From a virus, in the IMG/VR virus record IMGVR_UViG_3300005077_000017: DNA of 64,000 nt; one strand, given 5' to 3'. Every line of letters begins with the position of its first letter. Within the stretch, counting starts at the first letter, position 1. The notes under the pieces were generated by a model that made no database searches, had not been told where the DNA came from, and saw only the letters and a list, made by a program, of their open reading frames with translations. This document shows, piece after piece, positions 8,298 to 32,144 of this stretch. The position numbers and the translations under genes are program-made.

Positions 8298-9038
8298 ATG
8301 ACAAACCAAAACACATGTAGTCGTTGTGGAGTACCCTTAACTCATTCGGAAATATTAGATTTAGAAGGAGTTTGTAGATATTGTTTCTCTAGTCAATTAG
8401 GAGTTCAAAACAATCAAATAGCTTCAGAAATAAAGGAAGAGGTAGATTTAGTTGCTAGAGATGCTAAATCATGGTTATTACAGAATGTATCCAAAGAATC
8501 TTTATTAACATTTATTAATTTATTTCCAGACTTTTTTGGGGTAACAATAGATAATTGCCCAAGTAAAATGAAAAGCCCTTATGTTACATTTTGCATAAAA
8601 AAGCATTTATATTCAACAAATGAAAAATGCCTTGTATGTAAACCAGTTAAAGACTATATAGTTAAGTTAGCTGTAACATATAATTTGCATTATAACGAAG
8701 AACCACATGATCCTGATAATGAAAAACATGTACTCAATTTTATCGAAAGGAAATGCAGTGCTTTTTGTAATTTTGAACTTAAAGGAGATTGTGATTTACA
8801 AGATATACACAAGCAAGCTAAAGAATGTATGGAATTGCATAATAAATATGGAGAAACTTTATGGAATGTTACATATTTATTAGCTGAATCTATATCAGCA
8901 ATTAATATTCATTATGTTGATACTGAATATATTGAAGAAGCTATTATCTATTACATTGCAAGAAAAAAAGTAAGGACTGAAGAAAAACAGATAGAAAAAA
9001 TAAAGCCTTCTTTATCGTTTTATAGGAGGGTTGGGTAA
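8298..9038 (+). CDS. Cys-rich hypothetical protein with C-terminal KPSLSFYRR motif
   Basis: N-terminal CxxC...CxxC; ends KPSLSFYRRVG*. Confidence 0.75.
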   Translation: MTNQNTCSRCGVPLTHSEILDLEGVCRYCFSSQLGVQNNQIASEIKEEVDLVARDAKSWLLQNVSKESLLTFINLFPDFFGVTIDNCPSKMKSPYVTFCIKKHLYSTNEKCLVCKPVKDYIVKLAVTYNLHYNEEPHDPDNEKHVLNFIERKCSAFCNFELKGDCDLQDIHKQAKECMELHNKYGETLWNVTYLLAESISAINIHYVDTEYIEEAIIYYIARKKVRTEEKQIEKIKPSLSFYRRVG

Positions 9039-9451
9039 TGGCTCCAAATGCAAAGATTAGAATTATGGGTATTCCAATAAATTATGAATTATCTAATCCT
9101 AGTCATGTTATAGTTCAACAGCTACAAAATATGCTGGATAATGTTTTAGATACAATGAAAGAAGAAAAAACTTTTTGGGATGCTTTACTACATAGAGATA
9201 AAGATAAGGTATCTATAATGTGTATGGATAAAAAATACTATTTAATTGCTAATAATAGTATTTATAATAACTTGGCAGATCAAGTAATCAATGCATTGGA
9301 GTATAAAGTAAGAACCTTACCTAGTTATATGGAAGACGATGAAGAAGCAGATTATTATGACACGTGCTATTATGGCGGTTATTATCAGAACAGGTTTATG
9401 AACACAGTAACCAAAAAACCAGAACTATCTTTTTATCGGAGAAGTGGATGA
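9038..9451 (+). CDS. hypothetical protein with C-terminal KPELSFYRR motif
   Basis: TAATG-coupled start; ends KPELSFYRRSG*. Confidence 0.75.
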   Translation: MAPNAKIRIMGIPINYELSNPSHVIVQQLQNMLDNVLDTMKEEKTFWDALLHRDKDKVSIMCMDKKYYLIANNSIYNNLADQVINALEYKVRTLPSYMEDDEEADYYDTCYYGGYYQNRFMNTVTKKPELSFYRRSG

Positions 9452-9795
9452 GGAGAATACCACCAGAAGATATTCCTTACTTTATTAGCGTGCTGGAAAA
9501 AGATAGTGAAAAAGAAAAAACTCTGTCAAGATTACTAAATAATCTAATAAAAAAACATTCTGTATACGGTAAGAATGGGAATGCTATAAGTGTACTCACA
9601 ATGGGCGGTAACATGTGCATAAGTGGATTAGTAATCCCAATGAATAGAGTTGAAGATTTAGGATTAGCTTTGCTACGTTCATTCCCAAACAGAAGAAGTA
9701 GCGAAAATCTCGGTACAATGTTATTAGATTATACGCCACCTAATGCTGTTGTAAAACCAGAATTATCTTTTTATAAAAGAGGAAATAATGACTAA
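9448..9795 (+). CDS. hypothetical protein with C-terminal KPELSFYKR motif
   Basis: Start corrected to the ATGA overlap at 9448 (MRRIPPEDIPY); ends KPELSFYKRGNND*. Confidence 0.7.
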   Translation: MRRIPPEDIPYFISVLEKDSEKEKTLSRLLNNLIKKHSVYGKNGNAISVLTMGGNMCISGLVIPMNRVEDLGLALLRSFPNRRSSENLGTMLLDYTPPNAVVKPELSFYKRGNND

Positions 9796-9991
9796 TTTTC
9801 TTACTTCTATATGGTGTATCCATACAATAATATTCATCGTATGGTGCTCATTTTTCTTCTATTATATGCCTAAAAATAAAGAAACTAGTAAACTAGCTTA
9901 CTTAGGATTATTATGGACTGCAGCTCTTTCAATAGGACTTAATATATTGACTCAATAACGTAGAAAGGTAATTGTTATACAATAAACACTC

Positions 9992-12646
9992 ATGATAAAT
10001 ATAAACGTATCAAACAACATACAACTAAATGGATTACCAAAGGAGATCTATTATAGGTTAGTACAAAGGCTAACACATCTTAATCCCAATTATGAAAATG
10101 CAATGCGTTATTCTAAGAATAAGTATAAAGCAAAAAGAATTCCTAAAACCATAAAGGCATATCAATATGATAAACAGAAAAAACAACTTATCATTCCACG
10201 TGGATTCTATTTAGAATTAAGGAGTATATTAGATGAAGAAAACTTAGAATACAGAGTTATAGAAAATTTTCCTAATTATGAACGAATAGAAACTGAATCT
10301 AATATTGAATTACGTCCTTATCAACAAGAAATGATAAATGATTTAGAATGTTACTATGGGTATAACTGTATTGCTAAAGCTCCACCGGGAAGTGGAAAAT
10401 GTGCTAGTAAAGACACTTTAGTAAAAACAGATTTAGGTTGGAAATACATACAGGATATCGAAGTAAATGATGTGGTAAAAACATTTACTGGTTATGAAAA
10501 AGTATCTAAACATTATAGTTTAGGAAGAAGTAAAACATTAAAAATCGAAGCAAATAATGTATACGGTATAGAATGCACTCCAGAACATCCTTTGTTAGGG
10601 GTTAAAGAAGGAACCTTATGTTGGGTAAAAGCAGAAGAATTAAGTATAGGAGATTATGTATTATTAGGAAGAGAAAATGATACCTATATTAGAAGAGAAA
10701 GAGATCCTCTCGCAAGATTATTTGGATATCTAATAGCAGATGGGGTAATAGGAACTAAGAAACATTTACTATTTACAAACGATAATCCATTTATAATTGA
10801 TGATTTTAGACAAGTATTAAAAGATTTGGATATTACTTGGATAGAAAGACCTAATAACGATAAAGGGTCAATAACGTTCAGTTTGCATAAACCTCAGACA
10901 TTAAAAAATAATTGGAATATTAATTACGGTCTGCGTTTAGTAAAATCTAAGGATAAAGAGATACCTTCTTATGTGATGGTGGATAAGAACAAGTCAATAG
11001 AGTTTTTATCTGCTTATTTATCCTGTGAATCTTGTTGTGGTGGTTATGGACTGTCTTTTTCATCAGTATCAAAAAAGTTAATAAATCAGATATGCACTTT
11101 ATTACTGTCTTTTGGCATTGCTTGTTTTGGAAGAAAAGATTACGAAAGATCAAATATCTATAATGGAAAACTGATAAAATTAACAGATTGTGTATATGAG
11201 GCAACAGTTGTTGCTACTTCATTAATTGTACTATTACGTTTTGATTTACCTACTATTTGGATTAATAGAATCTCTAGTATATTACCTAAAAGAACTAGTA
11301 GTAATATGGATATTGTTCCTCTGTACAAAGAAATATCTGAGTCCCACAATAGATTAAAAAACAACGGGTATGGTTACTGTAAAAAATCATATGAAAACAA
11401 TGGTGTATATGAACACGGAGTATACAGGTATAGAAAGGGAATTGTAAGTCCATCTTTTCCTATGCTAACCAAGCTAATCTCTTCTTTTGGGGAAAATTGT
11501 TCTCCATTATTAAAAGACGTTAATAAATCAAAACCATTTTTTGCAAAAATAACTAGTATAGAAGAGTCTGAGAATGAGGTTTTTGATTTAACTGTAGAAA
11601 AAGAGCATCATTACCTTGGAAGTGGTTTTTATTCTCATAACACCGTATTAGGACTTGAATTTGCAAGAAGACAGGGGTACCCTTGCCTTTGGATGGTTCA
11701 TAACGATAGGCTTTTTAAACAAGCAATAAATACTGCAGAATTAATTTTTAATCAAAGTGAAGACGAAGTAGGCATAATAAGAGGAAAAGACACTAAAATA
11801 GGAAAAAATATTACTGTAGGAATGTTCCAAACTTTAATGAGAAGAGACATAATAGGAGAAAACTTAAATACTAAATTTGGTACAATTATAGTAGATGAGA
11901 CGCATCATTCTCCTTCCAATAGTTGGTCGTATATAATAAATTGTTTTAATCCGTATTTAGTACTAGGGTTAACCGCGACTCCGCGTCGTGGTGACGGGTT
12001 AACTCAATTACTCTTTGATTATATGGGACCAATTGTAACTACTGCTTCGAAGGAAAGATTATTTGAAGCTGGTTTTGCTGTTCCAGTAGAATATCACACT
12101 TTGTATTCAGATATACATACTTATGGAGATAATTTTAAACAGATAGAAACTCATATGATTGGAATACCAGAAAGAAATGAACTATTATTTAGAATAATAC
12201 AACAAGAATATGGAGAACAAGATAATTACATAGTTCTTTTAACTTCTAGAAGAGATCACGTTGCTACCATGCACGAAATGTGCTTAGAGCGTCGTATTCC
12301 AGCCTTAAAATTACTTGGTGGAAAATTAAAAAAAGAAGAAGAAGCTCGTATTGAACAGGAATTAGATAATCAAAGGTGTAGATTATTAATAGCAACGTAT
12401 AGTTATTTATCAGAAGGGTTTGATTATCCTCCGCTTAGTACAGTGATCTTTGCAACACCTTTTAGAGACGATGTTAGATTAGAGCAATCAGTAGGAAGAG
12501 CGCAACGATACACAAAAACAAAAACACACGCTAAAATAATTGACATAACGGATGACAACAGTATGCTAAAAAGCCAATCAAGAGACAGACTAGAATATGC
12601 AGAATTATTAGAATTAGACGTAAGAAAGTATGATCTCGCCACATGA
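9992..12646 (+). CDS. superfamily II DNA helicase (UvsW/XPB-like) interrupted by an intein
   Basis: LRPYQ Q-motif, Walker A APPGSGK/T, IVDETHH, GLTATP, LIATYSYLSEGFD, QSVGRAQR. Confidence 0.9.
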   Translation: MININVSNNIQLNGLPKEIYYRLVQRLTHLNPNYENAMRYSKNKYKAKRIPKTIKAYQYDKQKKQLIIPRGFYLELRSILDEENLEYRVIENFPNYERIETESNIELRPYQQEMINDLECYYGYNCIAKAPPGSGKCASKDTLVKTDLGWKYIQDIEVNDVVKTFTGYEKVSKHYSLGRSKTLKIEANNVYGIECTPEHPLLGVKEGTLCWVKAEELSIGDYVLLGRENDTYIRRERDPLARLFGYLIADGVIGTKKHLLFTNDNPFIIDDFRQVLKDLDITWIERPNNDKGSITFSLHKPQTLKNNWNINYGLRLVKSKDKEIPSYVMVDKNKSIEFLSAYLSCESCCGGYGLSFSSVSKKLINQICTLLLSFGIACFGRKDYERSNIYNGKLIKLTDCVYEATVVATSLIVLLRFDLPTIWINRISSILPKRTSSNMDIVPLYKEISESHNRLKNNGYGYCKKSYENNGVYEHGVYRYRKGIVSPSFPMLTKLISSFGENCSPLLKDVNKSKPFFAKITSIEESENEVFDLTVEKEHHYLGSGFYSHNTVLGLEFARRQGYPCLWMVHNDRLFKQAINTAELIFNQSEDEVGIIRGKDTKIGKNITVGMFQTLMRRDIIGENLNTKFGTIIVDETHHSPSNSWSYIINCFNPYLVLGLTATPRRGDGLTQLLFDYMGPIVTTASKERLFEAGFAVPVEYHTLYSDIHTYGDNFKQIETHMIGIPERNELLFRIIQQEYGEQDNYIVLLTSRRDHVATMHEMCLERRIPALKLLGGKLKKEEEARIEQELDNQRCRLLIATYSYLSEGFDYPPLSTVIFATPFRDDVRLEQSVGRAQRYTKTKTHAKIIDITDDNSMLKSQSRDRLEYAELLELDVRKYDLAT
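10400..11641 (+). mobile_element. intein (414 aa) with LAGLIDADG endonuclease in helicase Walker A
   Basis: GSGK|CASKDTLV...CTPEHP...LFGYLIADG...VFDLTVEKEHHY...SHN|TV; Cys1, His-Asn terminus, Thr+1. Confidence 0.92.
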
Positions 12647-14256
12647 AAGATAACCTAAGTTTAATAAACCTTATCCCATATGGATCTGCTAATAAAATAC
12701 CCGCTCAAGGTTTATCTGAGAAAGATGCTACTTATTGGAAAGATATTTTATCAAGTGTAATACGTATTGCAGTAGAATTAGAAATGAATTTACCAGATAG
12801 TTATAATTGTATTGAAATGAGTGGTGGAGCTGAGTCTTGTCTATGCAAAAAAATAATTAACAATGAATGCAAACCTTCTTGCTTAAGAGAAGATTGTAAT
12901 TTGAAAAATACAAACGATTGCAATCCACAAACTTGTTTATCCATAATCTCATCCTGTACAACCTGTACAGAAGCTATAATAGATTGTAGTGTATGCAAAA
13001 AATATTTAAATCTAAAGGAAGTATCTCCTAATACATTAAGAGGTAAAATTTCAGCGGAGTTAAAACCAACTAATAATGTTACTAAAGCTAAAGGTGTTTC
13101 TCAGGTTATTACTGATGGTTCTTTATCTGGAGACGGGGGAGTCGAAATAACGACTATTGGGCAATATCCAGATTATTTTTCTCTATATGAAGATTATGAC
13201 CACATAATAAAAGTAGCAAAAGAAAATAGGGCTTGGATTAATGAGCGATGTTCTTTACATGTGCATATGCTCACTCAGCATATCCCAGATAATGGTGTTG
13301 CTGTTAAAAATCAAAATAGCAACGTATACTATAACCCATTAGAAAAACCAATTCCAAACGAAATAGGTATTAATTTTCATCAGTTGTTGAGAAGATTCGA
13401 ACATGTGTTGATTTGGATGTTTTCTTCTGGTAATTCCATTGGTAATTTAACAAGATGGGAAAAATTTAGGCAGCCTATATTAACCATCGCTTCTCCTGTT
13501 ATTTCTGATATGAATTTAGTAAGCAATATACTCATGGATTTTTGTAGAAATAAAGTGAAAAGAGAAAAATATAGCACATTTAATTATTATTATTCAAAAT
13601 TTTCAGATAGCAATGAATTTAGAGTATTCCATTTAGAAGCTAGATTTGCTGATGGAACTATGATTCCTTCTGTTGTAGCAAGCCTAGGATGTATACTGTA
13701 TGCTATGCTATTGAAAGCTGTTGATATATCAAGATATGGAGTTTTATCAATTGGGTCTGAGCCTGTAATAGCTCGTATAAATCAAATGAGAAAAGCTTTA
13801 ATGAATAATAATCGAGATTACAATTCCCCAAGGTTGAGTAATACTTCTTCTATCCATAAGTATGAAACTTTGTTTAGAGAAGAAGCTGTTGAGTTTGTAA
13901 AATTTCTAGAACCTTATTTATCAAATATGGGGTATGCTTATGATGTTTTACTATCTTTAGCTGATAACCCAGTTTCCATGAGAAGAGCCAGGGATAATAA
14001 AACTTGGGAAGAAATAGAGAAAGACATAGATCCTCATTTCAATAGAACAAATACAAAGAAACATCATGTTGAAAATAAGATTCTTGAAATAATTGATTTA
14101 GCGTTATTGTTTGAGTTAGATAATAAGGATTGGATACGTGAAGCCAGTAGTATCTCTAGTGCTGAAGAACAACAAGTAGAAGAAGCAATTGCTTACTTGA
14201 TAAAAGATGGGAAAATTAAATGGTCGGATACAACAAAAACATATATAAGGAACTAG
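12643..14256 (+). CDS. putative amidoligase (glutamine synthetase-like fold) with Cys-rich N-terminal insert
   Basis: TDGSL...GVEITT, CSLHVHM, EARFADGT motifs of the putative amidoligase family. Confidence 0.75.
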   Translation: MKDNLSLINLIPYGSANKIPAQGLSEKDATYWKDILSSVIRIAVELEMNLPDSYNCIEMSGGAESCLCKKIINNECKPSCLREDCNLKNTNDCNPQTCLSIISSCTTCTEAIIDCSVCKKYLNLKEVSPNTLRGKISAELKPTNNVTKAKGVSQVITDGSLSGDGGVEITTIGQYPDYFSLYEDYDHIIKVAKENRAWINERCSLHVHMLTQHIPDNGVAVKNQNSNVYYNPLEKPIPNEIGINFHQLLRRFEHVLIWMFSSGNSIGNLTRWEKFRQPILTIASPVISDMNLVSNILMDFCRNKVKREKYSTFNYYYSKFSDSNEFRVFHLEARFADGTMIPSVVASLGCILYAMLLKAVDISRYGVLSIGSEPVIARINQMRKALMNNNRDYNSPRLSNTSSIHKYETLFREEAVEFVKFLEPYLSNMGYAYDVLLSLADNPVSMRRARDNKTWEEIEKDIDPHFNRTNTKKHHVENKILEIIDLALLFELDNKDWIREASSISSAEEQQVEEAIAYLIKDGKIKWSDTTKTYIRN

Positions 14257-14272
14257 GAGGAAACATAGCTAT

Positions 14273-15043
14273 ATGTGTGCAATCACAGGACTTGTATTAG
14301 ATCACAGTAAACCTAGAAGCCAGCAGTTTTTAGCTAAAGTTAAAGATCTATTTACAGATAGTCTGGCATCTACAGTGTATGGTGGATATAGTGCTACAGG
14401 TGTAATGATCTTAAATAAAGGATTTAAAATTCATTGGGGTAAAAACGGAATAAGATCCCCGCTGTTTGTTGAATCCGAACAATACAAACAACTTTTAAAT
14501 CAAATAAACGAAGAAACTGTTGCTATTGTTGGTCATTGTAGAGCTGCTACCGTTGGTGGAGAAGAAAAGAATATCAATAATCATCCTCATCAATGTGGAA
14601 GTAGTATAGGAGTACACCATGGGCATGTTCGTGATCATGTAGAGGTAGCAAAGAAATTTGCTATTCCATTAAAAGGCCAATGTGATAGTGAACTACTTGT
14701 AGCTGCATTTGATGTCTTAACACACAGGTTCAAATGGCAACCCAAAAGAGTATGCAATTTCATTCAAAAGAATATTAAAGCAAATTATGCAGTTGCCTTA
14801 TTTAATAAAAATGTAGGAGATAAGCTGGTATTATTTAGAGAAAAACAGAAATTAGAAGTGCACACTGTCCGCATGGATGATTCTCTATTGACGGTAATTA
14901 ATAGTAGATTTAGTGAAACAGATAGGGTATCTAAAAAATATGATTTAGAAGATAGAAATTATATAACAGAATTTTCTGGTAGAAGTAATCGTTTAGCTTT
15001 AATATCCTCTCCTTCCGAAATGGAATTTGCAAGTATAGATTAA
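14273..15043 (+). CDS. class II (Ntn) glutamine amidotransferase
   Basis: MC start, GHCRAAT, NNHP, HHGHV, CDSE. Confidence 0.85.
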   Translation: MCAITGLVLDHSKPRSQQFLAKVKDLFTDSLASTVYGGYSATGVMILNKGFKIHWGKNGIRSPLFVESEQYKQLLNQINEETVAIVGHCRAATVGGEEKNINNHPHQCGSSIGVHHGHVRDHVEVAKKFAIPLKGQCDSELLVAAFDVLTHRFKWQPKRVCNFIQKNIKANYAVALFNKNVGDKLVLFREKQKLEVHTVRMDDSLLTVINSRFSETDRVSKKYDLEDRNYITEFSGRSNRLALISSPSEMEFASID

Positions 15044-15783
15044 TGAGTTTCAGAAAGCAATATGCATCTAATAAAGTACCTAATGTTGTTTTTGTAATTA
15101 AAAACATAGATAATATTCCTAGATTTACACCAGGTATTATCTTTATGAATAAGCCTATGCACAAGCTATACAAAGACGATATCTATTTAGTTAGTTTTCC
15201 TATACCTGTTACTGTAAACTCCAGAATTACTGAATATGACATAAGAAGTAGGAATTTACAATTAGTTAAAAACCACCCATTATCCCGTTTAGTATTTAAG
15301 GATATCCATGTAATAACAGATGATATATTAATTAAAGCAGAAGAATATCCAATTATTTATGAGATAAAGCCAGTAGAATTAGAAGTCGGGTTATCTAAGA
15401 AATTTGTTTATGAAACTCTTCTTACTTTGTCTAATATGTACGAATACTGTTGGAGCTATACAGAAAATCCGTGTCATAATTCCATTAACATTATTAAGAA
15501 GGTATCCATAACTTCAATAAAGAATGTATTCCCAATTTTTGATCGTAATCAAGCCAACGGTATATGTGTTTGTGTGCATACAGGCCACCCACTAGAGTCT
15601 GCCGATTTATCACAAGGATTAGTCTTTTTATTGTCCAATTTTAAAACTAACATCACAATGTTTGATGGAGCAGTATTAAGAAATATGGACAAAAGTTTAA
15701 CCGCAAACGGGATACGTAATAAGATATATACATTTTCAAACATATACTCAATACAGGAGGATAAGTCTGTATGTGTGGAATAG
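15043..15783 (+). CDS. hypothetical protein inside the ligase operon
   Basis: 246-aa ORF coupled to both neighbours; no family recognised. Confidence 0.7.
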   Translation: MSFRKQYASNKVPNVVFVIKNIDNIPRFTPGIIFMNKPMHKLYKDDIYLVSFPIPVTVNSRITEYDIRSRNLQLVKNHPLSRLVFKDIHVITDDILIKAEEYPIIYEIKPVELEVGLSKKFVYETLLTLSNMYEYCWSYTENPCHNSINIIKKVSITSIKNVFPIFDRNQANGICVCVHTGHPLESADLSQGLVFLLSNFKTNITMFDGAVLRNMDKSLTANGIRNKIYTFSNIYSIQEDKSVCVE

Positions 15784-17522
15784 TATGTGCTTCTATTTTT
15801 AAAAGAGAAGATAATAATGATATGGTTTCGAAAATGATTGCTTATCTGTTTTCAACCTTAATGATTGAAACTGAATCAAGAGGCAATGATGCTACAGGGT
15901 TAATATTACATTATGACGATGGTAAGTGGGAAGGTATGAAAGCAGGTATTGAAGCTTCTAAATTACTTGGTAATAATTATCAGGCATTAAAAAATAGAGT
16001 TATATTCACAAATGTATATGATGAAGATAGATTAGAAGATCTACCTGAAGATATACAGACTTACCAAAATTTTATTCGTAGTAGATGGATTGACAATACA
16101 GATTCTCCTGTGAGAACTTTAATCGGTCATTGCAGAAAATCTACAAAAGGAACCGCCACTAATAATAAAAACAACCACCCAATTATTGCTGAACCTATCA
16201 TTGGAGTACATAATGGTAAAATTGAGAATGATGATGTTATATTTGAACTTCATAAAGGAGATTTTAACAGAGACGGAGAAGTAGATTCCGAAGCAGTATT
16301 CAAGCTAATGGCAGCTTTGCATCCTGAAGATGAGGTTGGGGATGCAGACTATATCAAAACTGTAGCAATGAGTACTCAAATTGGAGCTTTTCATAAAGAC
16401 GGTACGGCTGTTGTTGCAATGCATCAGGATTATCCTGGAGTAATTTATGCCTTTAGAAAAGGAGATAGACCTTTAGAAGTTTGCTTTTCTAAGGAATTAG
16501 GCGTAGCTTTTATAATCAGTGAGCAAGTTTTCTTGAAAAAACAAATGTTGGGATTCATAGTGTCTGACATGTGCAAATTAGGATATCCTTTATTTAATTT
16601 TGAATATAAGTCAATTGGTGATTACAAAGGATTCATAATAAATACAAATAAAGAACTGACAGATGAAATGAAAATTGCTGATATTATGGAAGAATTTGAT
16701 ATACAAAGGATAATAGATACTAATTATAAAAAGCCAGAACCTAAGTATACTACCACTACCACTACCACTACTCAAACTTCTACTACAACTTCAACTGCTG
16801 CTACTTCAACTGCTACGACTACTAATGTAAATGAAACTGATGAAGAAGATGGAGATTTAAAGGAAGTATTAGGAGCGGTAGGTCGTTTGCATAATAATAA
16901 ATTTAGTCTTGATTATGCCCCAGCAAATACTTTTAACTATATATCAGTAACAGAGAACCTAAATATAGAAAATGAAAAAGAGGAAAAAGAAGAGGTAGAA
17001 CAAGACCCTTTAGCTTCATCGACCAATGCTACAGAGCCTACAAAATATGGACAGACTACTGGAATAAAAGTAGTAGACACAATCAACAATAAAGAAGAAA
17101 AAGAAACCAACAGTAGTGGTTTAACTGATAAACAAAGATTCATTTTGAAATCTACAGATTTGAAAAGATTTTTTAGGTTTAGACAAATATGGGAAAAAGA
17201 AGGAATAGATAAAAAGTATTATTCTTTATTGAAGCAACAATACGGTGAAATTATGGAAGCAGCTTTTGATCTTAGAACAGATCAGATAGAGGCTTTAAAA
17301 GTTACTTGTATTGCATCATTAAAGAAAACAGCAAAAGAAGCTGGTTTACTGTCTAAGTATGAATGTGAAACATCAATTAATCAAATGCTAATGGAACAAG
17401 ATATTGATAATAATCAGCTATCTCTATATCTAGGTTTTGATTCATTTGCAGAACTAATAGATGAGGTATATAACTCTACTAAGGATGAAAAAGTAAAAGG
17501 AACGGAATACTACCAAGGATAG
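15771..17522 (+). CDS. class II glutamine amidotransferase with Thr-rich linker and C-terminal extension
   Basis: MCGIV, RGNDATG, GHCRKSTKG, NNHP, HNGKIEN, VDSE; poly-Thr tract near 16746-16822. Confidence 0.85.
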   Translation: MCGIVCASIFKREDNNDMVSKMIAYLFSTLMIETESRGNDATGLILHYDDGKWEGMKAGIEASKLLGNNYQALKNRVIFTNVYDEDRLEDLPEDIQTYQNFIRSRWIDNTDSPVRTLIGHCRKSTKGTATNNKNNHPIIAEPIIGVHNGKIENDDVIFELHKGDFNRDGEVDSEAVFKLMAALHPEDEVGDADYIKTVAMSTQIGAFHKDGTAVVAMHQDYPGVIYAFRKGDRPLEVCFSKELGVAFIISEQVFLKKQMLGFIVSDMCKLGYPLFNFEYKSIGDYKGFIINTNKELTDEMKIADIMEEFDIQRIIDTNYKKPEPKYTTTTTTTTQTSTTTSTAATSTATTTNVNETDEEDGDLKEVLGAVGRLHNNKFSLDYAPANTFNYISVTENLNIENEKEEKEEVEQDPLASSTNATEPTKYGQTTGIKVVDTINNKEEKETNSSGLTDKQRFILKSTDLKRFFRFRQIWEKEGIDKKYYSLLKQQYGEIMEAAFDLRTDQIEALKVTCIASLKKTAKEAGLLSKYECETSINQMLMEQDIDNNQLSLYLGFDSFAELIDEVYNSTKDEKVKGTEYYQG

Positions 17523-17525
17523 AAG

Positions 17526-18740
17526 ATGTCTCAACATGAAGTCAGGGTACTAGCCTCTGATCAAATGACACAAATGGCTAATGCAAATAGAGAAGATAAT
17601 ATGATTAGATTAACTAAAAATATGAGAAACAAGATTGGGGTTAATATAGGGGATAAGGTATCAATAGGAAAAAAGAATAAAGAGATTAAAGTTTTGGAAG
17701 TAAATAGAGCATACATTCACGATACAAATTTAGTAAAGCAATATGAAGATGATATTGCATTCGTGTCTGGGCGGGTAAATCAATTTTATAATCTATTTGA
17801 TAGTATATGTTGGATTAAGAAGTATGATCTGACTCCTCTAATAACCATAGGATCAGATCCTGAGTTTATTCTATTAGAAAACAACGTCATTACTCCTGCA
17901 TATTTCATAGAAGAACAAGTGCAAAAACGAGAATTATTTAGTAAATACTCAAAATTAGGATCTGACGGTACATGTGCAGAAATACGCCCAGACCCAAGTA
18001 ATGATGCTTGCAATGTCCATACTAGCATTAAAACCATAATAAATGACTATTCCAAATATGATTTTTTAGATAAATACAAATGGCAAACTGGAACCTTAAT
18101 TGATGATGGGTATCGTAAATTTCCTTTAGGTGGACATATCCATTTAGGACTTCCTAAATACATCTTAAAAAGAAAAGAATATAACGCAACTAATATTTCT
18201 CAATTTTATCAAAAATTATTTATTTCTTTGATAAAGCTATTAGACTACTACATAGCTTTTCCTCTATTAGCGGTAGAACTAGATAAGAAGAACGAACGAA
18301 GACTTACTAGATGGTTTAATACTTCATATGGCCAAGCCGGAGAATATAGAGTACAACCTCATGGATTAGAATGGCGAACTATTTCAGGAATATGGCTTAG
18401 TAATCCAGAATATGCTTTGGCTATATTAAATGTATGCTATGAATTAACAACTTACTTATTTCAGAAGTTAGTTCCTCCCGATATGAAAGACATTAATGAA
18501 ATCAAAGTAATAGAAAATTTAAATAATATAGTAGATAATAACCACCTAGAAAAAGCAATCACAGTAATTAATACAGGTTTTACTTCTACAAATAAAAAAG
18601 CATGTAATGAAAGATTAAAAGAACTTTCTAGTATTTGTAATAATAAATACTTATACTTTCTAGAATCCTTATTCACCATGACTACCACGGAGATTGAACA
18701 TATGACATCAAAAGACTTGAGAGACACATGGCTTTCCTAA
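17526..18740 (+). CDS. phiEco32-like COOH-NH2 ligase type 2
   Basis: IGSDPEF, SDG...EIRPDP, GGHIHLG, YGQAGEYRVQPHGLEWRT. Confidence 0.85.
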   Translation: MSQHEVRVLASDQMTQMANANREDNMIRLTKNMRNKIGVNIGDKVSIGKKNKEIKVLEVNRAYIHDTNLVKQYEDDIAFVSGRVNQFYNLFDSICWIKKYDLTPLITIGSDPEFILLENNVITPAYFIEEQVQKRELFSKYSKLGSDGTCAEIRPDPSNDACNVHTSIKTIINDYSKYDFLDKYKWQTGTLIDDGYRKFPLGGHIHLGLPKYILKRKEYNATNISQFYQKLFISLIKLLDYYIAFPLLAVELDKKNERRLTRWFNTSYGQAGEYRVQPHGLEWRTISGIWLSNPEYALAILNVCYELTTYLFQKLVPPDMKDINEIKVIENLNNIVDNNHLEKAITVINTGFTSTNKKACNERLKELSSICNNKYLYFLESLFTMTTTEIEHMTSKDLRDTWLS

Positions 18741-19741
18741 TATTCTCAGGACCTACGTCAATTACAGCACCAGAAATTGCTACAGCTCTAAGAATCAATT
18801 GCGGAAGAACTTTACCTAATACAGCTCCTGATGTGATTATTAATTATGGGGCAGGAACATTCACCGTTCCTCGTGGAACAAGAAGAGTTATAAATCATCC
18901 ACAATATTTAAGAAATAAATATTCGATGCTAGAACATTTAAATAATTGCAGAAATGTCACAATTCCTCCGTTTTGTAAAGTAGAACAAATAGGAAGAGAA
19001 ATAGGGAGATCTCTTAATTTTCCTATTATTGGAAGAACTAATATGCATCAAGCTGGAGGAGGATATTGGTTATGCTTATCACAAAGAACCGTTGACTGGG
19101 CACGAAATCACGGAGCAAATTATTTTCAACAATGGAAAGATATAAAAACAGAATACAGAGTACATGTGTTTGGAAATAGAGCAATTGGTGTATACAAAAA
19201 AGTACTGAGAGAAAATCCAAAAGATGACTTTTGTAGATTAATTGCTAAAGAAATATGCGAAGAAGGTAACTATAATGGTGTTAATGAGCAAACAGTAAAG
19301 GATATATTAAAGAAGGGGGTAAAGCATTGTACAAATCCAGATTTTAATATTAGAAGTCTACATAGAGGATGGCGATTTCAAAGAGATACCAATGCTCCAA
19401 ATGTAGTTACTAATATGGCAATTGCCGCTGTAAACCATTCAGGTCTAGATTTTGCTGCTGTTGATATGATGCTTTTGGATAACAATACAGCCGCCGTTAT
19501 AGAATTGAATACTGGGCCAGGCATGGATGTTGGTGGAGAAGCTTTTAATGCTTATATAGCTTGTTTTCGAACTGCATTAACTACTCCTGCTCCAGCTGCT
19601 AGACCTGCCGCTGCCAGACCTACAGTTAATAGACCTGCACCTGCTATCCCTAGGCAAGTACCTACTGAAACACTAAGAATTGCAAGAACAACAGGAACTA
19701 ATAGAAGAAGAATAAGAAGAACAATAGTAAGAACTACATAA
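18728..19741 (+). CDS. ATP-grasp peptide ligase (RimK/YheCD-like)
   Basis: IIGRTNMHQAG, EYRVHV, GLDFAAVDM, IELNTGPG; Pro/Ala/Arg-rich tail. Confidence 0.85.
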   Translation: MAFLIFSGPTSITAPEIATALRINCGRTLPNTAPDVIINYGAGTFTVPRGTRRVINHPQYLRNKYSMLEHLNNCRNVTIPPFCKVEQIGREIGRSLNFPIIGRTNMHQAGGGYWLCLSQRTVDWARNHGANYFQQWKDIKTEYRVHVFGNRAIGVYKKVLRENPKDDFCRLIAKEICEEGNYNGVNEQTVKDILKKGVKHCTNPDFNIRSLHRGWRFQRDTNAPNVVTNMAIAAVNHSGLDFAAVDMMLLDNNTAAVIELNTGPGMDVGGEAFNAYIACFRTALTTPAPAARPAAARPTVNRPAPAIPRQVPTETLRIARTTGTNRRRIRRTIVRTT

Positions 19742-19752
19742 GAGAGGTTTAA

Positions 19753-20250
19753 TTGTCAAGAAAACTATACGAATACATTTGTATGAATTGTAAGACTACT
19801 TGGTATTATAATGCATATGCCGGAAATATTGATATATGTACTGAGTGTGGGGAACAGGGAGCCTACATTGGAGTAACAATCAAACCAGATAAAAAAGATA
19901 ATGTCAATGATGATGAAATAAATATTCGATTAAACTTTATGTTGTATAAAAAGAAAGGCAATCTAGCAGGATTTTTTAGAGGTTTTGATGAAGATAGTGA
20001 AACTGTATATCTAGAAATGCTAGGAAAATATAAAGGATGCAAAATAGAGGTATCCCTGGATAATATTAATTTGAGTTCTTATCAAATTGGTAATAAAGTA
20101 AAAACTATAAGTCAAAAGGAGAATAAGCAACTATTTGCATGGAAGAAATTACAGAAACTAACATTTCATCAGACAACGAACAAGAGCAGTTATCAGAAGA
20201 TGTGGGATTTGGGGAAACCCAGTCTATCCTTTTATCGAAGAAGTACTTAA
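19753..20250 (+). CDS. Zn-ribbon protein with possible KOW/NusG-CTD-like domain and C-terminal KPSLSFYRR motif
   Basis: TTG start; CMNC...CTEC; GFFRGFDEDSETVYLEMLG...IEVSLDNI; ends KPSLSFYRRST*. Confidence 0.6.
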   Translation: MSRKLYEYICMNCKTTWYYNAYAGNIDICTECGEQGAYIGVTIKPDKKDNVNDDEINIRLNFMLYKKKGNLAGFFRGFDEDSETVYLEMLGKYKGCKIEVSLDNINLSSYQIGNKVKTISQKENKQLFAWKKLQKLTFHQTTNKSSYQKMWDLGKPSLSFYRRST

Positions 20251-21269
20251 AAGAACTAGCTGCATTGCCTAATGATGAGTGGAATTTACCTAGTCTTGAT
20301 ATAATTAATGCATTAAAAGATTGTATAGAACAACTTGAGCTGATGGTACAACAAAGTAATCTATTCTATACATACCCCTATTTAATTGAAGATATTGTAC
20401 AACATGTAGTTACTAATATGTGGGAAATGGCATGCGAAGTATTAAAAGAGTATGCTGACTCAATTAATTGGGATAAGGGAAGATGGTTCGCATATATGCA
20501 TAAAGTGATATATGTGTCAATTCACGAATTTCTAAATGAATTAAAATACCCTTTTACAATACCTCGCCAAGTTAGATTTGGTATTATAAGATTAGAAAAA
20601 GTTATGTTGACTCTATTACCTTACTTCAACAATAATATTGGATTGATAAAAAGCTACCCCCAGTTGAAATGTATTTTATATAACAAGGGAGTAGTCACCC
20701 AAGCTTGTTCTGAATGTAATATCCCTTGCGTTCTAGTAGATGTATCACAAAGAGATCAAGTAAAACTACTTGAATTAATTAGTGAAGGAAAAGGAAGTAT
20801 TGAAAAAAGTGCCAAAAGTTACAAAGTAGAATTCGATAATTTTATAAGGATACTAATACGAGTAATGAAGTATGCTTATGAATACGATGACATAAATGTG
20901 AATTTTGGTTTTGTTTACCATCCCGAAAATGTAATAGACATTAAACAGATCAAAGATAAGATGGATGAAGCTTACTCAAAAATATTAATAGATGAAGATA
21001 ATAATATAATTGAGATAGGATTATCCGATATTTACTTATCTGATTTGGAATATCAATCCCCTAGTAGTATGGATTGTAATGTACTTTACATGCCACATAG
21101 AAGAGTAACAAGCGAATTATTAAAGATTTTTAAAATAGAAAGCTCTGATAGACTAAAAGAATTATTAGCAAAGGGAGACGAAATAGTTAATGAAGAAAGA
21201 CAAAAAACAGGAATTATTCCTTTTCAAAGAAAAGTTCGTGGATATACTAAGGAGAAGAAAACCGTCTAG
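20139..21269 (+). CDS. divergent sigma70-family-like factor
   Basis: YLKEL (region 1.2-like), EDIVQ, DKGRWFAYM..VIYVSIHEFL...FTIPRQV matching region 2.2-3 pattern DLIQ/KFSTYA..WIRQAI/IRIP; start uncertain. Confidence 0.5.
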   Translation: MEEITETNISSDNEQEQLSEDVGFGETQSILLSKKYLKELAALPNDEWNLPSLDIINALKDCIEQLELMVQQSNLFYTYPYLIEDIVQHVVTNMWEMACEVLKEYADSINWDKGRWFAYMHKVIYVSIHEFLNELKYPFTIPRQVRFGIIRLEKVMLTLLPYFNNNIGLIKSYPQLKCILYNKGVVTQACSECNIPCVLVDVSQRDQVKLLELISEGKGSIEKSAKSYKVEFDNFIRILIRVMKYAYEYDDINVNFGFVYHPENVIDIKQIKDKMDEAYSKILIDEDNNIIEIGLSDIYLSDLEYQSPSSMDCNVLYMPHRRVTSELLKIFKIESSDRLKELLAKGDEIVNEERQKTGIIPFQRKVRGYTKEKKTV

Positions 21270-21930: not shown

Positions 21931-21959
21931 TTGCTGAATAAAAGCAAAAAAAGGATATA

Positions 21960-24503: not shown

Positions 24504-24507
24504 CACA

Positions 24508-25488
24508 ATGGAACTTCGTGGCGTACACGTAACAGCATGCATCTCCCCTGTCATGACTACTAATGCAGAACATACCATTATCCGAATCCCTGAGGATACA
24601 CGAAATCTAATGGGAGTTTCTCCAGGACAACGCATACGAATCAAGAATCGATTCTTTACTGTAAAGCAAGTAACAAGAGAAGAATTGAATTTGATTGCTA
24701 TGGAACCAGTCGTTGGACAGAATGAATGTGTAATGTTTTCAACACAGCATTGGAGAGATGAAGATTTTACAGACCTACATGTAAGAGCAGGTAGAGTAAA
24801 TCCTGGAGTTGCTGATACCCCGATTAACGTAGAAGTTGCTGAGACTGATCAGGAGCCCATTCCTGCTGTACCCACATTAAGAGAACGATTTCCTAATTCA
24901 ACTGTAACGATTCAGGGACAAAATGTAGTAGTATGTGAAGTAACAGGCCCAGAACTTACCAAAGGTTCAATCGGTATTCCGAAAGTACTGAGAGACAGAT
25001 TCGGAGTAGTAAAAGGAAATAGCATCACCATTGACACTATCAACAAGAACTTCACTGTAGATCCTTCATTTAAAGCAGATCTGGAAGCATACAAACCAGA
25101 ACTTAAAGAAAGTGAACTGATCTTTGTCAATCCTGATTGGGTTGCAGAAGGAGTTGAAGTGTTCTCCAAAAGAATTGCTACTACCCCAGCTGCTCCAGTA
25201 GTTCCTCAAGTTGATATAAAAGATATTATCAAAAAGATTGAAGATGTTGTTGGACCAAAGTCTATTGTAATCAATGTGGATGAGATTGAAGATAAGAATA
25301 AGGAAAAGATTTTCACGTTTGATCTTACGTGGAGTGGGGATTATGTGAATGGTAGAGCAACAGGTTATAGTTCAATTGAAGCAGCAAAAAGTGCACTTGC
25401 AGATTTACAAAAGAATCTGATTACAATGGTTGAAGATGCAAATACAATTGTAGAGAGTCTTAATGAATTGAATGAAAACATACAGTAA
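24508..25488 (+). CDS. hypothetical protein with two copies of a small beta-barrel-like module also found on both COOH-NH2 ligases
   Basis: IRIPEDTRNLMGVSPGQRIRI and IGIPKVLRDRFGVVKGNSITI. Confidence 0.75.
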   Translation: MELRGVHVTACISPVMTTNAEHTIIRIPEDTRNLMGVSPGQRIRIKNRFFTVKQVTREELNLIAMEPVVGQNECVMFSTQHWRDEDFTDLHVRAGRVNPGVADTPINVEVAETDQEPIPAVPTLRERFPNSTVTIQGQNVVVCEVTGPELTKGSIGIPKVLRDRFGVVKGNSITIDTINKNFTVDPSFKADLEAYKPELKESELIFVNPDWVAEGVEVFSKRIATTPAAPVVPQVDIKDIIKKIEDVVGPKSIVINVDEIEDKNKEKIFTFDLTWSGDYVNGRATGYSSIEAAKSALADLQKNLITMVEDANTIVESLNELNENIQ

Positions 25489-25512
25489 TTAAATCAAATA
25501 GCAGGAGGATCA

Positions 25513-26544: not shown

Positions 26545-26549
26545 TAAAA

Positions 26550-27848: not shown

Positions 27849-27888
27849 TTAATCTTATTATAGAAATAGATGGTATAGGAGGTATATA

Positions 27889-28152
27889 ATGAAAGAAAAA
27901 TCAATAATAAGAAAAGTAGGTAATCAATGGTGTGTTTACTATGGTGATAAGAAAGACTGCTTCGATACTCCTCAGGGGGCTAAACGTAGGTTAATAGAAG
28001 TGGAAATGTTTAAACATATGAAAAGCTCTACCTATGAATGTATTTGTAGAGATTGCGATGAGCAATTCACAAGCCATGTAAGGTGTGACCAATCAAAATG
28101 TCCCTCATGCGGAAGCTATGATGCGGAGGAAATAAGAGGAGAAATAAATTAA
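27889..28152 (+). CDS. small protein with C-terminal Zn ribbon
   Basis: GGAGG start; IRKVGNQWCVY...; CRDC...C...CPSC. Confidence 0.7.
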   Translation: MKEKSIIRKVGNQWCVYYGDKKDCFDTPQGAKRRLIEVEMFKHMKSSTYECICRDCDEQFTSHVRCDQSKCPSCGSYDAEEIRGEIN

Positions 28153-28165
28153 TTCATATATTTAA

Positions 28166-28226
28166 CTATCCTTATTGCAGTTAAGAGTTTATAACTCAAT
28201 CTATATGCTGCTAATAGAAAGGATAG
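28166..28226 (+). promoter_or_regulatory. RBS-sequestering hairpin upstream of LAGLIDADG gene
   Basis: CTATCCTT (28166-73) is the exact complement of AAGGATAG (28219-26) which holds the SD; GCAG/CTGC and inner GAGTT/AACTC stems. Confidence 0.6.
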
Positions 28227-28229
28227 AAA

Positions 28230-29483
28230 ATGAGGTATATTGTTAACGAAGATTATTTTAAAACTTGGACACCAAATATGGCTTACGTATTTGGTCTTTG
28301 GTGTGCCGATGGGTGTATATATAAAAATAATTTTAATATAACCCTTAAAAAACAAGACAGCTATTTATTATCATTGATAAAAAAAGATATGAAATCAGAA
28401 AGACCTATAGAACATAGAATTTATTGTATTACTAATGGGGATGTGCATACAACATGCTCATTAACTGTTTCAAACCAAACAATTATTGAAGATTTAATGA
28501 ATCTAGGAGGAACGCCTAGAAAATCTTTAACACTGAAATTGCCTAATGTCCCAAAAGAATATTTTCCACATTTTATTAGAGGGGTTTTTGATGGTGATGG
28601 GACAATTAGTAAAAATAATAAAAACAGTTGGAATGTTGGCATTTATAGTGGCTCTAAGGTATTCTTAGAAGAAATACAAAAAACATTACAAGAAGAAATC
28701 ATAAATTTCAAATCCAAGATTCATCCATCTAGAAAAATATTCTTTTTAAGGTTTTCCTCTAATAGTGCTAAGTTATTCGGCAATTATATTTATGACAATG
28801 ACTGCTTATTGTTCTTACATAGAAAATACGAGAAATTTCTAGAAATGGGAAATGAAATCAATTTAAGTTTGCTTGATTTATGTAAAAATGATTCCACTTC
28901 AGAACAAACCAAGGCAGAGTTAATACGAAGACTTTCTGAGGGGCAAACTGTTACACATATTGCTAAAGACTTTAACACCAGAAGCCAAAATGTAACAAAT
29001 GCTTTAAGATATTTTAATATTGATTGGAAAAAGTACAAAGGAATAAGAAAATACAAGAATTACTCTTGGAAAACAACTAATAAAAAATTAGAAAATTTAA
29101 CAAAAGAGGGGTTAATTAAACGATTGTCTGAAGGGCAATCTTTAAGATTTATTGCGTCAGAACACGAAGTGGATCATATGACAATTGCTTTACGGTGTGA
29201 AAAATGGGGAATAAATCGTAAAGACTATGAAGAAGTTCATAAAATGAAAAGATATTCTTGGGATAGTAATAGATTAGAAAAAATAACTAAAGAAAAACTA
29301 GTAGCTATGCTATCAGAAGGACAATCTTTAATTTATATAGGAGAACATTTTGGAGTTTCCGATGGAACAATACGCTCTTGTTGTGAGAAGTTTGATATCA
29401 ACTATAAAGAATTAGGAAAAGATAAAAAAGAGAAATTTCGACAATGTAGGTTTAAAAATAAAGGAAAAAGCTTACTAACCTAA
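28230..29483 (+). mobile_element. free-standing LAGLIDADG homing endonuclease with three C-terminal HTH-like repeats
   Basis: YVFGLWCADG and FIRGVFDGDG; repeat TKxxLxxxLSEGQ(S/T) three times. Confidence 0.88.
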
Positions 29484-29524
29484 AACACACATACACTACT
29501 AAAAACTGCAAAACAAAGGTTCGT

Positions 29525-30994
29525 ATGCTCATTAACATCAACGACACAACAGCTAAGATTATTTATGTGGAGGATGATAATCAAACAGTTATACGAATGT
29601 CAGAAAAATTAAGAAATTATCTAGATGTAAAAATAGGAAACCCTATAACTATTGATAAAAAGAAGTACATTGTAGGTAAATTGCTACAACGACATCTTAC
29701 TGAATATAAGATTAACGAAACTGATTTATATATGGTCACTGATAAGAAGAACAACCTTCCTCCTATCATCAATACACAACTTCACAACGTTATAGTGAAA
29801 AAAGATGTAATTACATTACCAGCTATGTATAATATACAATGTTTTGGACTTGGTTCCGACCCAGAATTAATGCTTTCTGATAATACAGGTAAAGCACTAA
29901 CAGCAGATAAATTTCTACCAGAAGTAGGATCTTTTAAAGATGGAAAAAACAAACCTGAAGTATATGCAGATGGGTTTGTTGCAGAATTATCACCTCTACC
30001 AAGTAATTGTCGTGCTATTCATATGAACGGAGTTGCGGGCTGTTTAGTAACTTTAGATAAAGCTTTAGAAAAAGAAGAAGTTAGCTTTACCGCCAAATCT
30101 TGTTTTGAAGTAGATAAAGAAGAACTGGCTAAAGCTACTGAAAGAGCAAGAATGTTTGGGTGTGATCCTTCAATTACCGGACAAGATGATATAAAATGTA
30201 GTGTCACCGTAGATCCTAGAACTGTAGATGGTGCTAAGCATATGAAACGCTATGCTGGAGGACACTTACATATTGGTAAGCATGCAGGAGATTACGGAAC
30301 AGCAGGTGATATCTCAAATCTAAAAAAATATTGTAAAGAAATGTCAAAACTATCCGATCTGTTTGTTGGAATTCCATCAGTAATGTTAGATAGAGAAAAA
30401 TCATCAAAAGAACGAAGAAAAATGTATGGAAGAGCAGGCGAATATAGGTTACCACCCCATGGATTTGAATACCGGGTACCAAGTAACTTTTGGCTAAGAC
30501 ATTCCGCATTAGGTTCTTTTATGCTTGGAAATTTGCGCTTTGTGGGGCATTTAGTCAATCGACAAATAGGAAACGCTAAAAAGATAATCAACGGGGTGGA
30601 TTGGGAACTAGTTGTAGAAGCAATTAATCAAAATTCATTTTCTAAAGCAAAGAAAGCATGGATAGAGTTTGCAAGACCAATACTAATTAAGAATCAATGT
30701 ATAGACGCATACCATTTTGATTTGGCTCCTTCGGTAGTACCTGTTTTCGAATTCGTTGCACAAAAAGGTATTCATCATTTTTGGTCTGATCATGTATTTG
30801 AAAATTGGAAATTAAAAGGAACTAATTATGTAAGACGGAACGGTGGCCACGATTTTCCTGGTTGGCAAGTCTTTTTTAGTGGCGTATTAAAAGAAGCAGA
30901 AATGTCAAAAGAATATTTTGCGTTTAGAAAAGAGTTAAGAAAAAAAGGATTAGAAGTTCCAGGTAATGATGATAATACCTGTCTTCCTTATTAA
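29525..30994 (+). CDS. second phiEco32-like COOH-NH2 ligase type 2
   Basis: GLGSDPEL, ADG..AEL.P, GGHLHIG, YGRAGEYRLPPHGFEYRVPSNFW. Confidence 0.88.
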   Translation: MLININDTTAKIIYVEDDNQTVIRMSEKLRNYLDVKIGNPITIDKKKYIVGKLLQRHLTEYKINETDLYMVTDKKNNLPPIINTQLHNVIVKKDVITLPAMYNIQCFGLGSDPELMLSDNTGKALTADKFLPEVGSFKDGKNKPEVYADGFVAELSPLPSNCRAIHMNGVAGCLVTLDKALEKEEVSFTAKSCFEVDKEELAKATERARMFGCDPSITGQDDIKCSVTVDPRTVDGAKHMKRYAGGHLHIGKHAGDYGTAGDISNLKKYCKEMSKLSDLFVGIPSVMLDREKSSKERRKMYGRAGEYRLPPHGFEYRVPSNFWLRHSALGSFMLGNLRFVGHLVNRQIGNAKKIINGVDWELVVEAINQNSFSKAKKAWIEFARPILIKNQCIDAYHFDLAPSVVPVFEFVAQKGIHHFWSDHVFENWKLKGTNYVRRNGGHDFPGWQVFFSGVLKEAEMSKEYFAFRKELRKKGLEVPGNDDNTCLPY

Positions 30995-30999
30995 ATTTA

Positions 31000-31837
31000 A
31001 TGAGAATATGGTGCTTAAAAAACAATTATTTAATAACTACTAGGCATAACCAAGGAATTATAACTAATCATTCTCCAGAAGATTGTGTAAATTGCGATAA
31101 AGAAGAATGCTCACTTTTTAAATATACCAGAGGATTATCCTCTCATTCAATAGGCTTATACTTAAGATGGCTAGGTGATTCTCCTTCTGACATCATTGCT
31201 TATAACGAAGGGTATGATATATTAAACAACACTTCTTTACAAGAAAAAGAACATTCTGGTTTAAAATTACTATACTCTTTACCACCAGAACTTTATGATG
31301 AATTTTGGATTCAAATTTATGAAAATAAAAACCTTAATTATAGAAATCCTTTAGATTCTGTATTAGAACGAGTTTTAATCGAATATGATAATTGGGACCC
31401 ACTAAAACCATATTGGCAAAATACCTCTATGAGGAGAAAAAATGGCTAATTGCTCATCATGTTCTGCTTGTTCTATGACCACAATAAATTTGCATAGAAA
31501 AGTATCTGATTTAGATTGGGATCAATTAAACAGAAAAATACATTATGCAATAGATAACCACGAAGCTTTATCCCTAGAAGAAATAAAATGGTTAATTTCT
31601 AGACTAGAAGATATTAATTCAATGTATGACTTAGCTATTGAAGAACAAATTAAAGGTAAAGCAGGTATTGATTTAGATGCCTTATTCGAGGAATACAAGA
31701 TATTAAAAGAAAAAGAAGATGAAGCTTCTTTGCTTAGAAAAGATGAAATACTCATGATATTTGAAAAAAGTGGAGTCGAAATAGTTAATGAAGGTTATAA
31801 GAGTTGGATAGTCCAGTATGATACCCTCCAAGGTTAG
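31000..31837 (+). CDS. two hypothetical proteins (31000-31449, 31442-31837)
   Basis: Coupled ORFs, no family recognised. Confidence 0.65.
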
Positions 31838-32144
31838 AAATAAATATACATTTGAAATATTTGATGTGATAGATTACTTATTATGTGAAAAAATAGAAAC
31901 TTGTCCGATGATGATAAAAGACAGAATTTTTAATGAAGTTTGCGGAGGGTACAAACTCTCTCTTAGGGGATTATTCTTTCTTATAAAACAAGATTGCGAA
32001 TACAAATATACGCCAGTTGAATCAAGGATATGTAAACCAGAACTATCATTTTATAGCAGAGATACACACACAACAAACAATGACACACCAACCACCAAAA
32101 CAATATGTCAGGATGACACTACAGAATATACTACTGCAGACTAA
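31818..32144 (+). CDS. hypothetical protein carrying KPELSFYSR near its C-terminus
   Basis: Motif at 32034-32060; remaining tail overlaps the next gene. Confidence 0.65.
   Translation: MIPSKVRNKYTFEIFDVIDYLLCEKIETCPMMIKDRIFNEVCGGYKLSLRGLFFLIKQDCEYKYTPVESRICKPELSFYSRDTHTTNNDTPTTKTICQDDTTEYTTAD

Follow-up and report, generated by a model that had tools for sequence, protein, structure and literature searches.

Why should five otherwise dissimilar proteins of one virus carry the same short peptide at or near their C-terminal ends? This question is raised by a 64-kb stretch of DNA (64,000 nt) from IMG/VR virus record IMGVR_UViG_3300005077_000017, the whole of which is referred to as the window. 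The peptide, KP[ES]LSFY followed in each case by a further residue and an arginine, and termed here the tag, was first noticed in a sequence-only reading, which proposed that it recruits a set of phage proteins to one hub. The analysis presented here puts at roughly 85% the probability that the tag is a real, peptide-selected docking label for one conserved partner, retained by a small clade of uncultured phages with AT-rich genomes. The most plausible candidate for that partner is a DNA sliding clamp, a tentative assignment held at somewhat below even odds. In large uncultured phages the majority of genes are ORFans without a functional handle, and a conserved address peptide would link five such genes, along with a small family in related phages, to one machine as its clients; used as a bait peptide, it also offers a direct experimental hook. 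The five carriers are as follows, with lengths in amino acids (aa).

8298-9038, + strand: g1, Cys-rich ORFan of 246 aa, ending KPSLSFYRRVG before the stop; tag KPSLSFYRR at 9003-9029
9038-9451, + strand: g2, ORFan of 137 aa, ending KPELSFYRRSG before the stop; tag KPELSFYRR at 9416-9442
9448-9795, + strand: g3, ORFan of 115 aa, ending KPELSFYKRGNND before the stop; tag KPELSFYKR at 9754-9780
19753-20250, + strand: g4, protein of 165 aa, ending KPSLSFYRRST before the stop; tag KPSLSFYRR at 20215-20241
31818-32144, + strand: g5, ORFan of 108 aa; tag KPELSFYSR at 32034-32060, internal by 28 residues

Recurrence of the tag and its carriers

A six-frame regular-expression search of the window returned KP.LSFY exactly five times, with starts at 9003, 9416, 9754, 20215 and 32034. 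All five copies lie on the plus strand and inside open reading frames (ORFs); no copy occurs in any other frame or on the minus strand, and no relaxed variant was found elsewhere. For comparison, only 0.009 copies of KP[ES]LSFY are expected from the residue frequencies of the six-frame translation. Once low-complexity sequence is set aside, KP.LSFY is the top-recurring 7-mer pattern of the window, and in mononucleotide shuffles no 7-mer pattern of any kind reached more than three copies. The sites first listed by eye are thereby reproduced, and the concern that the motif might be just as frequent in other frames or in non-coding DNA is answered by the absence of any off-frame copy. The distance from tag to stop is 2-4 codons in g1-g4 and 28 residues in g5. 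With regard to gene boundaries, the stop of g1 lies two codons past the tag and is overlapped by the ATG of the following gene (TAATG), the start ATG of g3 at 9448 overlaps the g2 stop (ATGA), and the 28-residue tail of g5, rich in Thr and Asp, runs into the start region of the RNA-ligase-like gene that follows.

Outside the tag, the bodies of the carriers are unrelated, as the sequence-only reading had held: local alignment against shuffles gave z ≤ 1.05 in all ten pairs, and BLASTP alignments amongst the five proteins cover the tags alone, with the exception of g3 and g5. In this pair YTP is also common a few residues upstream of the tag (26 aa, 54% identity, E 0.008), and the DNA of the region (9730-9780 and 32010-32060) shows Y-T-P together with nine identical nucleotides, TATACGCCA, a likeness which hints that a tail may have been copied from gene to gene. 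No Pfam, PHROG, PDB or cultured-phage homologue was found for g1-g5; sequence searches of the PDB with these proteins gave no match, and the ESM Atlas returned nothing above 0.77. Word-based homologue searches with g1 and with the g2 tail each recovered the query alone, and g2 matched only itself amongst 5.8 billion protein clusters.

Searches with the tag DNA itself were similarly sparse. Three back-translated tag patterns gave 2, 0 and 1 matches in IMG/VR, every one in a non-coding frame. A scan of metagenome contigs produced 99 single matches, approximately as many as expected by chance. Almost all of them fall in frames riddled with stops or in a conserved AT-rich element that is unrelated to the tag; just one of the 99 lies ≤6 residues from the stop in an ORF offering ≥50 codons upstream, and a second copy was found on none of the contigs.

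Selection on the peptide

Conservation beyond the window can be followed for g4, the sole tagged protein with detectable orthologues. An exhaustive HMMER profile search of 1.84 billion representative proteins identified four remote orthologues (P0018-P0021) at 28-35% identity, and the tag is kept in all four. Their C-termini read:

P0018: LGKPTMTFYQRKRTQ
P0019: LGKPIITFYHRQTGQ
P0020: ISKPTFSFYEVL
P0021: LGKPTLTFYQRKMQVAI

The tag forms in these proteins are KPTMTFY, KPIITFY, KPTFSFY and KPTLTFY, giving the pattern KPx[LMIF][ST]FY and, when combined with the window copies, the consensus K-P-x-[LMIF]-[ST]-F-Y-x-R. Within the alignment of g4 and its orthologues, K, P, F and Y are invariant and the preceding 20-30 residues are variable, gapped and unalignable. 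Retention in orthologues, which the sequence-only reading had named as a test of its proposal, is thus found in every case available. A fifth HMMER match, P0022, is a GH25 lysin with repeats and was set aside as probably spurious. The orthologues lie on contigs (L106-L111) that are each <3.6 kb long, with a GC content of 31-35%, and whose gene order follows that of the window: an ATP-grasp gene (57-74% identity) comes first, then the g4-like gene, a homologue of a 376-aa ORF and homologues of the next two genes. The assemblies behind these contigs are ENA ERZ27284293, ERZ23486236 and ERZ23486257 and JGI 3300035633 and 3300042731.

An AlphaFold2 (AF2) model of g4 was built on the orthologue alignment, with a predicted local distance difference test score (pLDDT) of 79. 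It comprises a Zn ribbon (residues 3-44), an SH3/KOW/Tudor-like barrel (58-118) and a helix (123-136), followed by a low-confidence tail that bears the tag; structural matches are to NusG/Spt5/Tudor proteins and are weak. Residues 140-165 fall to a pLDDT of 45-65 after the confident fold, and the predicted placement of the tag there is characteristic of a short linear motif borne by a flexible tail.

The DNA underlying the tag has changed freely where the peptide has not. Amongst the window copies, codons vary between AAA and AAG, between CCT, CCA and CCC, between TTA and CTA, between TCG, TCT, TCC and TCA, and between AGG, CGG and CGA, with serine also written as either TCT or AGT; differences in the conserved tag codons are synonymous without exception. 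Across the eight DNA copies, the third positions of the K, P, F and Y codons all vary and the first and second positions are fixed, with all four Pro codons and both Lys, both Phe and both Tyr codons in use. The claim that variation is confined to synonymous sites, and that selection acts on the peptide, is therefore borne out not only in the window, but also in orthologues at around 30% identity.

It could nevertheless be argued that recurrence of the tag is a by-product at the nucleic-acid level, whether as a translational-coupling cassette or as a regulatory nascent peptide acting at termination. In g1, g2 and g3 the R/K-R codons do double as the Shine-Dalgarno (SD) sequence of the following gene, just as had been noted from the letters alone (AGGAGG, GGAGAAG and AGAGGAAA, set 5-9 nt upstream of its ATG). 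Moreover, a precedent for such a cassette exists in an unrelated phage locus, L164, where 14 small ORFs end in LENK through the near-invariant element TTGGAGAAYAAATRA. The start regions of 127 window ORFs, however, hold information at -14 to -6 (the SD) only, and the KPxLSFY portion sits 15-35 nt upstream of the following starts, in a zone without start-region conservation in this genome. Since start regions are conserved only at -14 to -6, KPxLSF is no general ribosome-site element, and the earlier argument that the SD cannot explain KPxLSFY holds. In addition, g5 and the L109 orthologue of g4 have no start codon beside the tag, and orthologue DNA has changed with K, P, F and Y kept. Synonymous sites alone vary, TCT/AGT and AGG/CGG/CGA included, and because the wobble positions of K, P, S, F and Y all do so, the tag is not a DNA-conserved ribosome-binding-site (RBS) cassette. 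Invariant K, P, F and Y residues with varying wobble positions behind an unalignable linker therefore identify a peptide-level short linear motif, and the RBS by-product is considered very improbable. The tag DNA of g4 is also read in a second frame, by the overlapping 376-aa ORF.

The LENK loci, which were retrieved from IMG/VR via their ATP-grasp genes, serve as a negative comparator, as the window tag behaves unlike their cassette. L164:3002-17778 holds 14 and L178:1353-7510 four small ORFs (59-87 aa) ending in [SD]LENK or [WLM]ENK before the stop, with the element TTGGAGAAYAAATRA combining near-invariant DNA, an SD, and overlapping start and stop. Many of these ORFs share an N-terminal M.FKVGD motif and are therefore paralogues; two LENK copies are written as TTAGAAAATAAATAA, without a coupled downstream start.

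Candidate partners of the probable docking label

Under the docking reading, KPx[LMIF][ST]FY(x)R would act as a C-terminal short linear motif on a flexible tail, holding five or more small, mutually unrelated phage proteins to a single partner that they share and that evolves slowly. Were this the sliding clamp, it would be either a phage gp45-like protein encoded beyond the window or the host beta clamp; the L, F and Y of the tag would fill its hydrophobic cleft, as do QL[SD]LF and T4 SLDFL[FY] peptides, and the tagged proteins would ride the DNA as clamp clients. The basic residues after FY may derive in part from the embedded SD of the next gene.

The resemblance to clamp-binding peptides that had been pointed out from the sequence alone is real. 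The bacterial clamp consensus is QL[SD]LF (PMC12867686), and its spacing, x-L-[S/D]-[L/F]-[F/Y], matches the tag position by position, again within a terminal, flexible region; positions 2-5 of the pentapeptide are fitted by the tag (L/M/I/F, S/T, F, Y), with position 1 being E/S/T/I and never Q. The T4 epitopes, verified in NC_000866, are ASLDFLFG in gp43, SPSLDFLYEAND (PSLDFLYEAND) in gp55 and NTLDFLL in gp33, and P-S-L-x-F is common to gp55 and to g1 and g4. As with the gp45-binding epitopes, the tag is a short hydrophobic C-terminal peptide on otherwise unrelated phage proteins, joined by a variable linker, and the cores compare as [ST]-L-D-F-L-[FYL] in T4 and [SET]-[LMIF]-[ST]-F-Y here.

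A further parallel concerns the neighbour of g4:

20139-21269, + strand: probable divergent sigma factor, a 376-aa ORF overlapping or translationally coupled to g4

The top 50 Foldseek matches of this ORF are almost all sigma factors, at E ≥ 0.07. By VIA-align, residues 26-137 resemble sigma domain 2 (3ugo_A, Z 7.3; T4 gp55 7d7d_F, Z 6.6) and residues 255-361 sigma region 4 (6dv9_F, Z 6.8; 2h27_D, Z 6.6), Z values that are under the safe level for helical matches and that come from a model which is poor overall (pLDDT 59). A Sigma70_r2 protein occurs in the matching neighbourhood of a distant syntenic relative, L102, and the predicted fold suggests that the ORF probably encodes a divergent sigma factor. 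Its residues 1-26 have a pLDDT of around 31 and orthologues begin near residue 33; the true start likely lies downstream of the ATG at 20139, an in-frame GTG being present at 20202. In T4, gp33 and gp55 act together, and here a tag carrier likewise stands beside a sigma-like gene. Through a C-terminal QPDLF, the Mor/MuC transcription factors of phage Mu link late transcription to the beta clamp (PMC12867686). In a similar manner to T4 gp33 or MuC, g4 could tie transcription to loaded clamps. If the reader of the tag is indeed the clamp, clamp-coupled transcription and the 'toolbelt' use known from T4 and Mu would extend to new proteins with a divergent, basic motif.

Several features weigh against the clamp. 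No structural or replication protein is encoded within the window, and this includes any clamp, clamp loader or polymerase; there is no gp45 homologue, nor any detectable relation to T4 at sequence level. T4 epitopes are hydrophobic and acidic (PMC2988020), whereas the tag is basic, flanked by K and RR, so that it approaches the gp45 epitope in its core but differs in its flanks and is one hydrophobic position short. The invariant K-P lies outside any clamp consensus and the following R is conserved too, the Gln of QL[SD]LF is replaced, and clamp binding by the tag is putative. The sigma-like protein, unlike gp55, has no tag. Finally, L-x-F-aromatic is degenerate enough to suit many hubs. A complex prediction of Bacillus subtilis DnaN with g4 residues 128-165, using the orthologue alignment, returned 'no answer' with a score of 0.00, and was counted neither for nor against.

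The same neighbourhood lends itself to a different reader, such as host RNA polymerase, the adjoining phage sigma factor, a chaperone, or a protease adaptor for which the tag would be a degron timing the removal of early proteins. The coupling of g4 to a probable sigma factor and its Zn ribbon with a KOW/SH3-like barrel fit such a hub, as does the strong conservation of the tag against a body identity of around 30%, which points to a slowly evolving reader. A hydrophobic core with basic flanks near the C-terminus is also typical of chaperone and protease recognition. Despite this, no RNA polymerase, sigma, ClpX, Lon or DnaK motif is known to fit KPxLSFY, and seven constrained positions would be unusually specific for a degron, leaving this alternative rather unlikely.

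A role in the capsid has also to be weighed, whereby the tag would bind the procapsid interior as a loading or ejection signal and the five proteins would accompany the DNA both at packaging and at injection. T4 internal proteins show just this arrangement, a single short peptide on small proteins that are otherwise unrelated, and the cargo peptides of encapsulins are C-terminal and hydrophobic with Ser, with basic residues at the end; in both systems one address peptide is shared by unrelated cargo. The T4 signal, however, is N-terminal and is cleaved off by the prohead protease, a virion location of g1-g5 is hypothetical, and the lack of structural genes in the window counts against this reading. 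Nor is the T4-type late promoter TATAAATA enriched, with 17 sites in the window against 19 expected. A capsid signal is accordingly judged improbable.

The ligase region and its relatives

The final candidate hub is the ligase machinery that lies amongst the tagged genes. An operon encodes an intein-bearing helicase, a 537-aa protein, GATases, a COOH-NH2 ligase and an R2K ATP-grasp enzyme, with a second COOH-NH2 ligase further on; the member adjoining g4 is:

18728-19741, + strand: R2K-type ATP-grasp ligase, directly upstream of g4

These enzymes (the R2K ATP-grasp, the two COOH-NH2 ligases and the GATase proteins) could dock on the tag as a recognition or modification site and, in the manner of maturases for ribosomally synthesized and post-translationally modified peptides (RiPPs), which read a shared recognition sequence, mark its invariant Lys, or a Ser, Thr or Tyr, with an amino acid or a gamma-glutamyl group. 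Each of the five tagged genes is located in or beside the ligase region (10-31 kb of the 64-kb window; p of approximately 0.05 for three independent placements), and the earlier statement that all border ligase clusters holds as far as position goes. Both here and in the four related contigs whose upstream gene is visible, g4 follows directly on the ATP-grasp gene. K, S/T and Y are available as invariant potential acceptors, and two gamma-glutamyl cyclotransferase (GGACT) genes are present in the window. Phage R2K.2 enzymes have, furthermore, been predicted to ligate peptides onto proteins of unknown identity (Burroughs et al. 2015; PMC4431377). As with the leaders of ATP-grasp graspetides and the tags of radical-SAM systems, a short conserved peptide is found on variable proteins with modifying enzymes nearby.

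Comparison with more distant relatives tells against this reading. The operon (9992-19741) is kept in L102 and L103 without the tag and without a g4 homologue, and neither a tag nor a member of the g4 family was found in 80 IMG/VR loci with ATP-grasp homologues (1.38 Mb). Tag and ATP-grasp co-occur within one narrow clade (four of four contigs) and not more widely across genomes, and the placement of g4 next to the ATP-grasp gene in close relatives belongs to a five-gene synteny, and hence is not independent evidence. The carriers, unlike RiPP-type substrates, are folded proteins of 108-246 aa, and they differ at their very C-termini, a variation that speaks against C-terminal extension of the RimK/TTL type. 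Due to the existence of tag-less relatives with a conserved ligase operon, the substrate-tag reading is weakened, and docking of the ligase machinery on the tag is regarded as unlikely. The more specific scheme, whereby the tag marks protein substrates of the R2K ATP-grasp and COOH-NH2 ligases for a peptide or gamma-glutamyl mark that the two GGACT enzymes would erase, is quite unlikely. Were the ATP-grasp/amidoligase system nonetheless the reader, the protein targets predicted by comparative genomics, and never found, would be identified; and if the tag directs ligase marks, the virus would encode a tag-directed protein-modification code. Of the original proposal, a short linear motif serving one hub remains the best reading, supported by peptide-level selection, the predicted flexible tail and orthologue conservation, whereas its suggestion of the ligase machinery as that hub has lost ground to the tag-less operons.

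With regard to the operon itself, it is retained in L102 (880-12497) and in L103, from phages that differ widely in GC content (49% and 40%). The conserved order is helicase with intein, 537-aa protein, GATase, unknown protein, GATase fusion, COOH-NH2 ligase and ATP-grasp, with identities to L102 of 34% for the ATP-grasp and 31% for the 537-aa protein. Relatives have a GNAT gene after the ATP-grasp, at the place held by g4 in the window. An AbrB/SpoVT-like module (consensus IRIPK.LRN..GV.IG..ITI) is present at 17526-17800, 29525-29800 and 24508-25488; both COOH-NH2 ligases begin with it, and a non-enzymatic protein of 326 aa has two copies. The module is also kept on the ligases of the tag-less L102 and L103, which speaks against the ligase reading and led to its rejection as a tag-specific receptor.

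As for the remainder of the window, all genes lie on one strand and the GC content is 31.6%; the parent contig measures 72,755 bp. Genes for RNA repair include RNA ligases, a CCA-adding enzyme, RlaP and a kinase, and tRNA genes are absent from the window. Other genes encode a dCMP deaminase, a pyrimidine-dimer glycosylase, an AdoMet decarboxylase, the two GGACT enzymes and a radical SAM protein, alongside inteins and LAGLIDADG endonucleases. No near relative was found in INPHARED by DNA or protein, where only distant phiEco32-type ligase matches at 22-33% identity were returned, and an IMG/VR search with ligase 1 gave no match and no near relative. The radical SAM protein (57541-58965) comprises 474 aa, including an unassigned N-terminal region of around 200 aa, and lies 25 kb from the nearest tag, which would be its target under a further candidate reading; its best matches, which are weak, are to peptide maturases (WgkB, KxxxW, PqqE) and to MoaA. 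Lastly, the ATP-grasp proteins of the clade (window 18728-19741; L106:3-644; L109:2-277; L111:178-963), which share 57-74% identity with that of the window, end in long Arg-rich tails, such as NRRRIRRTIVRTT. These tails, which are absent from the more distant L102 homologue, suggest nucleic-acid or ribosome binding.

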